Virus record (IMG/VR): IMGVR_UViG_3300031088_000782 | Span: 96,001-160,000 of that record | Length of the DNA stretch: 64,000 bases | From: a virus | Lineage: Duplodnaviria; Caudoviricetes | Reading direction: 5' to 3' (one strand) | Shown: positions 6,247 to 62,793 of the stretch, piece by piece | How positions within the stretch are numbered: the first letter of the stretch is position 1 | Layout: the number at the start of each line of letters is the position of its first letter | Program-made: the position numbers and the translations under genes | Notes under the pieces: generated by a model | What the model was told of the DNA's origin: nothing | Database searches by the model: none | Seen by the model: the letters and a program-made list of their open reading frames with translations, nothing else

Positions 6247-6366
6247 AGAGATATTATTCGAAACATATAAAAACATTTTGAAATTCTTCATTTAAGTTTT
6301 GATAAAATAATTGTGTCAAAGCTTTGATGTTGACCTTAGAAAAAATTACGAAAGAGAGTTGTGTAG

Positions 6367-50521: not shown

Positions 50522-50689
50522 AGTGGATAGTATCATTGGGTGCTGTTTATCTTAAATAGTTAAGCTGACTATGCAGGTGAGACAGTATAAGATGTAGTTA
50601 CCACTATAAACAAAACTCCCTGATAAGTCTCAAGAGGTAGAGCTGGCAATACGCGTCCGGTTGTGGGTTCAAGTCCCACTCATAGGGAA
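50522..50689 (+). ncRNA. repeat unit 2: conserved stem motif + degenerate tRNA-like element
   Basis: Motif 50522-50612; tRNA-like 50617-50689. Confidence 0.55.
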
Positions 50690-53486: not shown

Positions 53487-53493
53487 CGAGGAT

Positions 53494-53566
53494 CGAAAAG
53501 TCATGGGTTCGATTCCCATATAGTCCACATATTCATGGGCTATTGATGAAATGGTATCATATTTTG
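53494..53566 (+). ncRNA. circularly permuted tRNA-like RNA P1 (G3.U70, A73)
   Basis: CGAAA-AGTC-T arm-ATAGTCC-A-linker-GGGCTAT-D arm-TTTTG. Confidence 0.75.
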
Positions 53567-53628
53567 ACAGGACCGTGAAACTCGGCAAACTTAGTGAGAG
53601 GCTAAGGAAATAGATGCAAATTCTTTAT

Positions 53629-53736: not shown

Positions 53737-53909
53737 GGCTAAATGGTGTACAACATTTAGTTCAAACTATCAAAATAGACAGATCATCTATAAATGGTAG
53801 AATAAGTTTTGACATTCCAGGAGTCAGGCGGTTGCAGGTTCGAGTCCTGTCAGTTAGCACACAAGTTAATTGTAACTCAATAGGTTAGAGTTCCTGATGA
53901 ATGGTTTGT
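53737..53909 (+). ncRNA. permuted tRNA-like RNA P2 (YrlA-like architecture)
   Basis: 5' GGCTAAA hairpin; core 53824-53897 T arm, loop-closed acceptor, D arm; TCAGG/CCTGA stem. Confidence 0.78.
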
Positions 53910-53998: not shown

Positions 53999-54168
53999 GG
54001 CTAAACACGGTACCATGTTTAGTTCAACCCATTGGTCTAGAACAATGGAAGATAGTTATTATTAGATAATTGATTTTAGAGATCTGGGTTCAAGTCCCGG
54101 TGGCTCCCGCATGGGGGTTATGGAATAATTGGGAAATTCGCTTCATGAAATATTTGATAATAATTATT
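53999..54168 (+). ncRNA. permuted tRNA-like RNA P3 (same family as P2)
   Basis: 5' GGCTAAA hairpin; T arm 54084-54100, acceptor closed by GCAT, D arm; about 17-bp flanking stem. Confidence 0.75.
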
Positions 54169-56964: not shown

Positions 56965-57038
56965 TACTGTGTAGTTTAATGGCAAAACACTAGGCTCTTA
57001 AAGCTTAGCATATAAGGTTCGAATCCTAATCACAGTTG
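56965..57038 (+). tRNA. degenerate tRNA with a 9-nt loop CTCTTAAAG
   Basis: Good D arm; CTAGG/CTTAG stem; mismatched T stem. Confidence 0.45.
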
Positions 57039-58347: not shown

Positions 58348-59187
58348 ATGAAAATTGACACAACTAGATATGGTTATATTTATCGCATAACAAACTTATT
58401 AGACGGAAAGACCTATATTGGAAAACATAAGATTAAGAAAAATGAAGAGTTTTTTGACTATATGGGATCAGGAAGATTAATTTGTTATGCGATAAATAAA
58501 TATGGAATAGAAAATTTTAAGAAAGAAATTATTTGCTATACAGATTTAGATGATTCTTTATCTATTTTAGAGTATAAATATATTGATATTGAACTTTCAA
58601 ATAATAAGTCAGAATATAATATACAAAGAAGCGAAAGTTCTTTAAAAACTGTTCTTGAAAACCTTGATTTTTCTGATGAAGATTTATTAAAATGGTACTT
58701 TGAAGATGAAATGTCATACAATGATATAGCAATAAAACTTAATTGTTCTATTCCTACTATATATAATTATATGGAAAAGTTTAGACAAATTGATGAAAGA
58801 TTTAAGAATATTAAACATGGTGATAATAGGGGAAAATCTACTTGGTCTCCAGAAGCAGCTCAAAAAGGACTTAGTATTTCTAATAGAAAAATTAAATGTG
58901 AAAATTGTTCTAGACAAATAAGTTTTGCAAATTATTCTAGACATTTAAAAGCATGTTTGAATGGAACGAGCCAACATGAATGTTATTATAATAATTGCGA
59001 ACAATTAATAGGATCAAAAAGCAAATTATGTAAAAAACATTTTTTAGAATCATTAAAAAATAATGATATTAACAATTCTAAAAATTTTGGCGACAGTGTT
59101 AAACAAGGTGGAATTACAGCATCTCATAATAGATGGCATGTTAAAAGAAATATAGTTAGTGATAAATGTTCTTTATGTAAAAGTTGA
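58348..59187 (+). CDS. GIY-YIG (Seg-like) homing endonuclease
   Basis: GYIYRITNLLDGKTYIGKH..YMGSG..YGIENF..EYN; HTH; C-terminal Cys pairs. Confidence 0.88.
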   Translation: MKIDTTRYGYIYRITNLLDGKTYIGKHKIKKNEEFFDYMGSGRLICYAINKYGIENFKKEIICYTDLDDSLSILEYKYIDIELSNNKSEYNIQRSESSLKTVLENLDFSDEDLLKWYFEDEMSYNDIAIKLNCSIPTIYNYMEKFRQIDERFKNIKHGDNRGKSTWSPEAAQKGLSISNRKIKCENCSRQISFANYSRHLKACLNGTSQHECYYNNCEQLIGSKSKLCKKHFLESLKNNDINNSKNFGDSVKQGGITASHNRWHVKRNIVSDKCSLCKS

Positions 59188-59332
59188 CAACTGAATATTG
59201 ATTATGATATAATTAATTTGTTGTTAAAAAATGAATAAAATAAAATTTTGTTAAAGATTTTAATTATTGTCATAAATAAAGTTGCATAAGCGATTTAAGT
59301 GTGATATAGTTTAAATTGTAAAACAAAAGCAA

Positions 59333-60482: not shown

Positions 60483-60551
60483 CAAGTATTCTACAATTTG
60501 ACAAACAATTGTGAAATATGGTAGAATATGATTAAAGAAAAGTTAATATAT

Positions 60552-60826: not shown

Positions 60827-61021
60827 CGCAATATTTTATCAAATATTTCAGAAAATTATTTGATAAAATATTACAATAAGAGACAAAAGTTCCTTTCACC
60901 ATTAGGAACTTTTGGTTCAGATACGAAAAATCTGAATTAATGGAATGGTGATCAATATGGACTAACCACCATATTTAAAATCTTTGCTAATGACTTTGGT
61001 TAAGATATTAGCAAAGAACAT

Positions 61022-61094
61022 GCGCCTATAGCTCAGTTGGTAGAGCGCCTTCTTTACGCGGAGGATGTCAAAGGTTCGATTCCTTTTGGGCGCA
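61022..61094 (+). tRNA. trnV: tRNA-Val(TAC)
   Basis: TT-TAC-GC. Confidence 0.92.
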
Positions 61095-61104
61095 CAACTT
61101 GAAA

Positions 61105-61146
61105 GTGAGTTCGATACTCACCGTATGGATAATAACCCACCATACG
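61105..61146 (+). ncRNA. permuted tRNA-like core P4
   Basis: Perfect T arm GTGAG/CTCAC, then 7-bp CGTATGG/CCATACG closed by an 11-nt loop. Confidence 0.55.
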
Positions 61147-61246
61147 AATAAGGATATTGAGTAGAGTTTACTTGTGGTAACGGTTCGATTCCGTTGTAAT
61201 AGTCTGGGTGGCTTTATCATAAATGGTATGAACATGAGTAATTTTG

Positions 61247-61319
61247 TTTGCTGTAACTCAGTTGGCAGAGTGCCCGGTTGAAAATCGGGAAGTCAATGGT
61301 TCGATTCCATTCAGCAACG
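61247..61319 (+). tRNA. tRNA-Phe(GAA), atypical (1-72 mismatch, G73)
   Basis: TT-GAA-AA; full cloverleaf. Confidence 0.78.
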
Positions 61320-61484: not shown

Positions 61485-61555
61485 GCAAGTGTAGTTTATT
61501 GGTAAAACACCTGCGCTCCAGCAGGAAAAGTAAGTTCGATTCTTACCGCTTTGCT
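61485..61555 (+). tRNA. Gly-like tRNA with a 6-nt anticodon loop
   Basis: CCTGC-GCTCCA-GCAGG; extra nucleotide in acceptor; U73. Confidence 0.5.
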
Positions 61556-61878: not shown

Positions 61879-62039
61879 AAGAATAGTGATCCATGTTGGT
61901 AGAGATAGGGCACTAATGACCTAAGTTTTGTATAAGATGTTATTCAAAATATGGCGTGAATGTCCTAAAAGATGTAAAATAAAATGAAAAGATTATGGAT
62001 GCAGTCTTATACACGCAGGTTCGATTCCTGTTATTCTTT
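61879..62039 (+). ncRNA. 161-nt elongated tRNA-like RNA
   Basis: AAGAATA/TATTCTT acceptor, T arm, 10-bp internal stem. Confidence 0.5.
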
Positions 62040-62645: not shown

Positions 62646-62793
62646 TTGACAATAATTATTAATTATGCTAAGATTAACTTGTTAAATCAAATTGAGGACT
62701 TATCAAGAAGATAACGAGATTATAGATTTGACAAGCGTTAAAAAATAGTTTATAATTAATAATATAAAGCGGTTTGGAAACTTAATAGTGGAA
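62646..62793 (+). promoter_or_regulatory. tandem P1/P2 promoters with a conserved spacer motif and boxA-like leader
   Basis: TTGACA-17-TAAGAT; TTGAGGACTT motif; TTGACA-17-TATAAT; GCGGTTTGGAAACTTAATAGTGGAA. Confidence 0.7.

Follow-up and report, generated by a model that had tools for sequence, protein, structure and literature searches.

Permuted tRNA genes, in which the 3' half of the tRNA is encoded upstream of the 5' half, reportedly occur in Cyanidioschyzon merolae and also in some green algae and archaea. The algal and archaeal genes rebuild a full cloverleaf by way of a bulge-helix-bulge (BHB) motif, a splicing endonuclease and a circular intermediate. A permuted form of tmRNA, which consists of two pieces, is said to be present in alpha-proteobacteria and cyanobacteria. 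For phages, the titles and abstracts covered by our literature search contain no report of permuted tRNA genes. A tRNA-like domain with a comparable order of elements is found in the YrlA RNAs (Rfam: RF02553), whose genes lie within about 4 kb of the gene for Ro60/Rsr and on the same strand (Chen et al. 2014, PMC4201824). In M. smegmatis, RNase P cuts the acceptor-like loop of YrlA, and CCA is added in vivo; among the YrlA RNAs studied, this one alone has an acceptor-like stem of 7 bp (Chen et al. 2014, PMC4201824).

Here we describe P4, the spacer between a tRNA-Val and a tRNA-Phe gene in the large tRNA array of a phage, which contains two hairpin modules, P4a and P4b. Our preferred interpretation, to which we assign a probability of roughly one half, is that these modules are tRNA mimics that follow the YrlA design but do not depend on Ro, and that are co-transcribed and then released by tRNA processing.

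Two hairpin modules between tRNA-Val and tRNA-Phe

The source record is a single contig of 309,534 bp from IMG/VR, and the window, i.e. the whole stretch of 64,000 nucleotides that was analyzed, corresponds to its bases 96001-160000; positions refer to the window unless the record or the genome is named. The record contains 66 tRNA genes and one tmRNA, nearly all of them in a single plus-strand array, while the remaining genes of the window are of the phage type, serving replication and nucleotide metabolism, with many homing endonucleases among them. A gene for a CCA-adding enzyme is present in the phage, and an ORF with an Rnl2-type RNA ligase domain is located at 309013-309465 of the record, about 70 bases short of the last base. 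In a large protein collection, a protein identical to the phage TilS over 98% of its length was found on a contig of 681,645 bp. Judging from this identity and from the position of the ligase ORF at the edge of the record, a much larger genome probably exists, of which the 309-kb 'provirus' record covers one part. Further relatives of TilS, obtained in a search of the TilS family, have identities of 50-89% and derive mostly from Logan and ENA assemblies. The record ORFs of 170-340 aa include a SpoU-family RNA 2'-O-methyltransferase, an RNase T-like exonuclease, a Sir2 protein, an ADP-ribosylglycohydrolase, two ADP-ribosyltransferases, a VKOR, a signal peptidase and T2SS-F/TadE-like proteins.

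Some other features of the array may be listed here. A tRNA-like gene at 61485-61554 has an anticodon loop of 6 nt; ARAGORN lists it as 'tRNA-???' with a 2-base anticodon, and it obtains 39.7 bits with the Rfam tRNA model. At 56966-57037, ARAGORN calls a 'tRNA-Stop' whose anticodon is UUA and which might suppress ochre codons; a similar call is found at position 6295 on the minus strand of a locus from a different huge phage, likewise in a tRNA array. The 194-nt spacer upstream of tRNA-Val (60828-61021) contains several strong hairpins, e.g. a long A/T-rich inverted repeat at about 60832-60875 and the inverted pair AAAAGTTCC...GGAACTTTT at about 60887-60916.

Table 1. Positions of P4, its component helices, the flanking tRNA genes and the modules P1-P3 (window coordinates).
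Feature	Positions	Strand	Sequence	Basis and remarks
tRNA-Val(TAC), upstream flank of P4	61022-61095	+		ARAGORN; Rfam tRNA 67.7 bits
P4 spacer	61096-61246			151 nt, from tRNA-Val to tRNA-Phe
P4a	61097-61162			66-nt module
P4a closing stem, 5' strand	61097-61102	+	ACUUGA	Pairs with 61157-61162; MFE fold; pair probability 0.43-0.66
P4a T arm	61105-61121	+	GUGAG-UUCGAUA-CUCAC	Sequence, T-arm scan; pair probability 0.98-0.99
P4a sealed acceptor-like hairpin	61122-61146	+	CGUAUGG/AUAAUAACCCA/CCAUACG	7 perfect Watson-Crick pairs
P4a D-like hairpin	61147-61158	+	AAUA-AGGA-UAUU	GG in loop; overlaps closing stem by two bases
P4a closing stem, 3' strand	61157-61162	+	UUGAGU	MFE fold, pair probabilities
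P4b	61168-61241			Contains the second T arm of the spacer
P4b closing stem (9 bp), 5' strand	61168-61176	+	UUACUUGUG	Pairs with 61233-61241; MFE fold; pair probabilities 0.53-0.94
P4b T arm	61179-61195	+	AACGG-UUCGAUU-CCGUU	Sequence, T-arm scan; pair probability 0.90-0.95
P4b short hairpin	61201-61213	+	AGUC-UGGGU-GGCU	4 bp; alignment with P1; pair probability 0.85-0.98
P4b D-like hairpin	61217-61231	+	UCAUA-AAUGG-UAUGA	Pair probability 0.60-0.73
P4b closing stem, 3' strand	61233-61241	+	CAUGAGUAA	MFE fold, pair probabilities
tRNA-Phe(GAA), downstream flank of P4	61247-61320	+		ARAGORN; Rfam tRNA 58.2 bits
P1 module	53493-53567
P2 module	53824-53897
P3 module	54075-54145

The first module, P4a, is composed of a T arm, a sealed hairpin, a weak hairpin with GG in its loop and a closing stem of 4-6 bp (Table 1). 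The closing stem occupies the position of the anticodon stem and is connected to the T arm by a linker of 2-4 nt. The T arm retains G53-C61 and the positions U54...A58, and it is followed with zero gap by the acceptor-like hairpin (CGTATGG at 61122-61128, the 11-nt loop ATAATAACCCA at 61129-61139, and CCATACG at 61140-61146), whose 7-bp helix is predicted to stack on the T arm and has pair probabilities of 0.98-1.00. The loop of this hairpin starts with AUAA and ends in CCA immediately before C61140. The D-like hairpin is weak, consisting of four A-U pairs with a pair probability of about 0.1; the D arm of P4a is vestigial, and an equivalent of U8 is missing.

Both parts of P4a had been described by the sequence-only reading: a perfect T arm (GTGAG-TTCGATA-CTCAC) with a gapless 7-bp CGTATGG/CCATACG helix and an 11-nt loop is indeed present on the plus strand at 61105-61146, and so is the weak D-like AAT-AAGGAT-ATT directly downstream. 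A second T arm (AACGG-TTCGATT-CCGTT), which that reading had attached to the same candidate, exists too and belongs to the separate module P4b. In this second module, a closing stem of 9 bp encloses the T arm, a short hairpin and a D-like hairpin. The short hairpin represents a degenerate acceptor-like hairpin; it lies 5 nt off the T arm and is mismatched if extended. The T loops of both modules retain UUCGAUN together with G53-C61. With the exception of the P4a D-like hairpin, the pair probabilities of the helices predicted for P4a and P4b lie at 0.4-1.0.

Thermodynamic support is concentrated in P4a. The 68-nt segment 61096-61163 folds with z = -3.16 relative to dinucleotide shuffles, and T arm and hairpin alone reach z = -4.35. 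P4b alone is no more stable than its shuffles (z = -1.30), and the fold energy of the whole 151-nt spacer is unremarkable (z = -0.86 to -0.88). The two modules are linked by one further feature: the loop UGGGU of the short hairpin of P4b (61205-61209) could pair over its full length with ACCCA in the acceptor-like loop of P4a (61135-61139), with P of about 0.007 for this pair of loops and about 0.017 for any pair of non-T loops, a match that was noticed post hoc.

Permuted genes, tRNA copies and chance

The order of elements in P4 recalls a permuted gene, and the sequence-only reading had listed it as a candidate for one. This model takes P4 for an authentic tRNA gene of the permuted or split type: its halves would be joined, e.g. 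by the Rnl2-type ligase of the phage, and the acceptor loop would be cut to yield a tRNA that can be charged and can decode. The 3'-half elements are located upstream of the 5'-half elements and are joined at their acceptor ends (T arm-CGUAUGG, 11 nt, CCAUACG-D-like), which agrees with the Cyanidioschyzon-type genes, where a short linker likewise separates an upstream 3' half from a downstream 5' half. The phage encodes both an RNA ligase domain and a CCA-adding enzyme; moreover, in normal tRNA order, the D-like element is followed by a hairpin with 5 bp and a 7-nt loop (61158-61174) and then by the second T arm. However, the loop of this hairpin, AGAGUUU (61163-61169), is the sole 7-nt loop available and has neither U33 nor purine 37, and the hairpin itself has a pair probability of 0.02. 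The ends of P4a form just a short stem, and of the seven bases in the acceptor-like 5' strand no more than three pair with the sequence that follows the second T arm. Neither a tRNA-splicing endonuclease (Pfam: PF01974) nor RtcB was found in the record. ARAGORN called no tRNA in the P4 spacer at thresholds of 100, 80 and 60%, and neither the tRNA nor the YrlA family of Rfam matched when 61085-61255 was searched with E values up to 10. In contrast to the Cyanidioschyzon-type genes, P4 therefore lacks a usable anticodon loop, with no splicing endonuclease found in the record, and we consider its maturation into a tRNA extremely improbable.

Two-piece tmRNA resembles P4 in the succession of T arm, acceptor 3' strand, linker and acceptor 5' strand. 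It differs in that the third acceptor pair of P4 is A-U and not G-U, the alanine identity pair G3-U70 of tmRNA, and that no CCA directly follows the discriminator of P4; furthermore, P4 contains neither a tag reading frame nor pseudoknots and is only 151 nt long. The sole tmRNA call of standard ARAGORN is a one-piece tmRNA at genome positions 178464-178814. A 'tmRNAp' is called in the most lenient ARAGORN mode only, amid plainly spurious calls.

A BLAST comparison of P4 with the 66 tRNAs of the phage recovered T-loop words only, and no tRNA of the genome shares the 24-nt 3' end; hence, P4 is not a recent tRNA copy or a duplicate generated at an integration site. A coding function was rejected too, and a 55-aa antisense ORF that spans P4 gave no match when used as a query.

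A chance juxtaposition of hairpins would be favored by the A/T-rich composition of the region, by the weakness of two elements of P4a, its D-like hairpin and its closing stem, and by the fact that the loop complementarity was spotted only afterwards. Yet sealed hairpins of this kind are rare. Defined as perfect hairpins of at least 7 bp that start at offset 0 after a T arm and have a loop of 3-15 nt, they follow 4 of the 73 T arms in the record (P1, P2, P3 and P4a), compared with 0 of 121 in other loci that total 1.8 Mb. About 7.5 T arms per strand are expected by chance across the 309 kb, and matches outside the array are exclusively A/T-rich, with a frequency close to that in shuffled sequence. 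The G/C-rich T-arm motifs outside called tRNAs, ten in number, are all on the plus strand and all in spacers of the array. Together with the low folding energy of T arm and hairpin (z of -4.35, see above), these counts disfavor the chance explanation, which we rate as very improbable.

Other orphan G/C-rich T arms in the array spacers, none of them with a sealed 7-bp hairpin, start at 50663, 55806, 57332, 59986 and 62015. The last of these sits within a weak and short match to the tRNA model (61989-62039, 20.1 bits).

Possible kinship with P1-P3 and expected processing

The array contains three further modules, P1, P2 and P3, with the layout of P4: a T arm, a sealed acceptor-like hairpin and a D-like element. 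That the order of these elements is the same in all of them, as the sequence-only reading had it, is borne out by the hairpin scan and by the folds. Unlike P4, the modules P1-P3 have acceptor-like stems of 8 bp and well-formed D arms of 4-5 bp. Aligned on one structure, they show 91% paired cells, and 14 of the 23 pairs are changed on both sides. A covariance model of P1-P3 assigns 78-87 bits to its own members, 15-27 bits to the 3' ends of ordinary tRNAs and 19.7 bits to P4b; with E values up to 1 the model misses P4a, which was not recovered by a single-sequence model either. Because P4b falls inside the background of tRNA 3' ends and P4a is missed, P4 is not assignable to a P1-P3 family at the sequence level. 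Taken by itself, P4 has less support than P1-P3 and makes the weaker case.

The pairwise alignments give a different picture of the history of P4 from the one drawn before, namely an unrelated sequence and repeated independent origin. P4b is similar to P1 with an alignment z of 5.7, a value reached in 0 of 300 shuffles and the highest of all module pairs. The two share AUAGUC...GGCU and AAAUGGUAU. In the T stem, pair 2 is changed from U-A to A-U and pair 3 from G-C to C-G, and in the D stem (UGAU...AUCA in P1) one pair is changed from G-C to C-G; pairing is kept in all of these positions. The acceptor-like stem of P1, AUAGUCC/GGGCUAU, recurs in P4b in a form that is shortened, offset by extra bases and mismatched. 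For P4a and P1 the alignment score is lower (z 2.9, p 0.017), and scores of this kind are inflated by shared tRNA-like motifs; the similarity of P4a to P2 and to P3 is not significant. P4a and P4b have the closing-stem words ACUUG...UGAGU in common, which would fit an origin of the two as tandem duplicates. Given the similarity of P4b to P1 and the three swaps that preserve pairing, duplication is favored over independent origin: duplication followed by divergence would be the simpler history of the P4 modules, and their independent origin appears unlikely.

In the main alternative to mimicry, P4a and P4b are decaying copies that have lost their function; they would derive from P1-type modules or from tRNA genes that were rearranged, and would persist as spacer material in a fast-evolving array. 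The weak D-like hairpin of P4a is in agreement with this, as are the offset, shortened and mismatched acceptor-like hairpin of P4b in comparison with P1, the failure of the P1-P3 model to detect P4a or to lift P4b out of the background, the non-significant overall fold energy, and the presence of the other orphan T arms listed above, which resemble tRNA debris. What is more difficult to reconcile with decay is that all 12 pairs of the T arm and the acceptor-like helix of P4a are Watson-Crick pairs, which is unexpected beside a decayed remainder. Furthermore, three stem pairs of P4b are altered on both sides relative to P1 with pairing intact, and the canonical UUCGAUN and G53-C61 are kept in both T loops. 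Decay is thus possible, and the principal competitor of mimicry, though we regard it as doubtful.

If P4a and P4b are functional mimics, as we prefer to think, their expression would depend on the surrounding tRNA genes. Within 61096-61246 there is neither a promoter-like nor a terminator-like site, so that P4 was rejected as a terminator or a promoter; the nearest promoter-like site upstream is located at 60498-60527, before tRNA-Leu. As the spacer has no promoter or terminator, P4 probably resides within a Leu-Asn-Val-P4-Phe precursor, and transcription of the spacer in one such polycistronic tRNA precursor is the most likely scenario. The 5' end of the P4 RNA would then be set by 3' processing of tRNA-Val, and its 3' end by RNase P at the 5' end of tRNA-Phe. 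Elsewhere inside the array, perfect 12/12 matches to a sigma-70-type promoter are found on the plus strand at 59184-59213 and 62728-62756, in addition to several matches of 10-11/12; their presence suggests that the array may be transcribed as several units.

Units of 12 bp formed by a T arm and an acceptor helix are recognized by RNase P, RNase Z, the CCA-adding enzyme and enzymes that modify the T loop. Since P4a keeps a 12-bp unit of T arm and acceptor-like helix, it is predicted to bind tRNA enzymes. Recognition by RNase P in particular is predicted because the 7-bp stem adjoins a 5-bp T stem, because the loop ends in CCA, because the phage has a CCA-adding enzyme, and because the YrlA of M. 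smegmatis provides a precedent. P4a is thus a predicted substrate of RNase P, which may nick the loop between A61139 and C61140. P4b, for its part, would be a diverged copy of the P1 type in which the T and D hairpins that make up the tRNA 'elbow' are retained, as is a basal stem of 9 bp, but the acceptor-like hairpin has degenerated. Docking of the two modules on each other, through their complementary loops ACCCA and UGGGU, may also occur. RNAs of this form might serve, for example, as decoys or scaffolds for tRNA-binding proteins of the host or the phage.

Alternatively, the hairpins could be structural punctuation that aids or times the cuts of RNase P and RNase Z at tRNA-Val and tRNA-Phe, with no independent RNA being formed. 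The element fits exactly between the two tRNAs, with margins of 1 and 5 nt, it has no promoter or terminator of its own, and processing enzymes are known to recognize a T arm with an acceptor-like helix (PMC4201824). However, most tRNA pairs of the array, whose spacers according to ARAGORN can be as short as 1 nt or as long as hundreds of nt, have no such module, and the recurring closing stems and GG-loop hairpins would be superfluous for mere punctuation. We therefore judge this function to be improbable.

A more specific variant of the mimicry model joins both modules into one molecule. P4a and P4b could be two domains of a single RNA of about 150 nt, excised from the tRNA precursor and held together by a kissing interaction of the ACCCA and UGGGU loops: a Ro60-independent 'double tRNA mimic' that occupies or misleads elbow-binding and acceptor-binding proteins. 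Candidate targets, if this were true, would be processing or modifying enzymes or host defense nucleases that target tRNA. We deem this variant unlikely. In the more general form that we prefer, mimicry has a notable implication: if the modules work, the phage possesses at least five anticodon-less tRNA mimics (P1-P3, P4a and P4b) in an array of 66 tRNAs but lacks Ro60, the sole known protein partner of such RNAs.

Sealed modules in other huge phages and the YrlA design

The P1-P3 model yields matches of 33-38 bits in other huge-phage records of IMG/VR, where they lie between ARAGORN-called tRNA genes. An interpretation of these matches as junctions of tandem paralogous tRNA genes was rejected: ARAGORN calls no tRNA over them, and for this reason they are regarded as sealed modules of T arm, acceptor and D elements. 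Such modules are seen in three other huge-phage records. One record of 372 kb contains five of them, with acceptor stems of 7-8 bp, loops of 15-19 nt and canonical D arms; in a record of 217 kb, a sealed module has ACCA in its acceptor loop (UCUCUCC-ACCA-U-GGAGAGA). The 217-kb record also has a T arm with an imperfect hairpin of about 10 bp at the 3' side of tRNA-Val(TAC).

No sequence homolog of P4 itself was found: comparison of the P4 DNA with four huge-phage records and BLAST against all compared loci gave nothing significant, exact searches of IMG/VR with 24 nt of P4a and with 21 nt of tRNA-Phe gave no match, and blastn of the region against GenBank phages returned generic tRNA matches only. 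No close relative of the phage was among the matches listed in IMG/VR searches with the neighboring DUF4379 protein, the 212-aa ORF, TilS and a TilS alignment, or in a metagenome scan with generic PP-loop patterns. The matches listed in a scan of genome contigs for TilS comprised only an actinobacterial TilS of 39% identity, and in tblastn of TilS against phages the identity was at most 31%.

With respect to YrlA, a search with RF02553 over the whole record gave 31.4 bits for P2, 20.2 bits for P1 and no match for P4, the gathering score being 69 bits. A regular-expression search of 61085-61250 found no GNCGAAN0-1G motif, the putative Ro60 contact. Searched with E values up to 1, the 309-kb record, which may be a fragment of the 681-kb contig, yielded no Ro60/TROVE gene; DUF2828 gave no match in the whole-record search, and a scan of 95 ORFs with lengths of 170-340 aa found no DUF7873. 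Membership of P4 in YrlA thus fails, layout apart.

The recurrence of the sealed layout across huge phages points to a widespread class of tRNA-mimicry RNAs, largely undescribed in the literature searched. To this class P4 would add a minimal form of 66 nt, with little beyond a T arm and an acceptor helix, as well as evidence that the modules duplicate and decay inside an array. Compared with YrlA, P4 is devoid of the long Ro-binding stem, and it is located in the tRNA array of a phage and not beside rsr. The tRNA-like domain of YrlA and the P4 modules nevertheless follow the same plan: a basal stem opens the domain, the T arm, the loop-closed acceptor-like stem and the D arm succeed one another, and the basal stem closes it again. 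Both have a canonical T loop and GG in the loop of the D-like hairpin, and P4a shares with the YrlA of M. smegmatis an acceptor-like stem of 7 bp.
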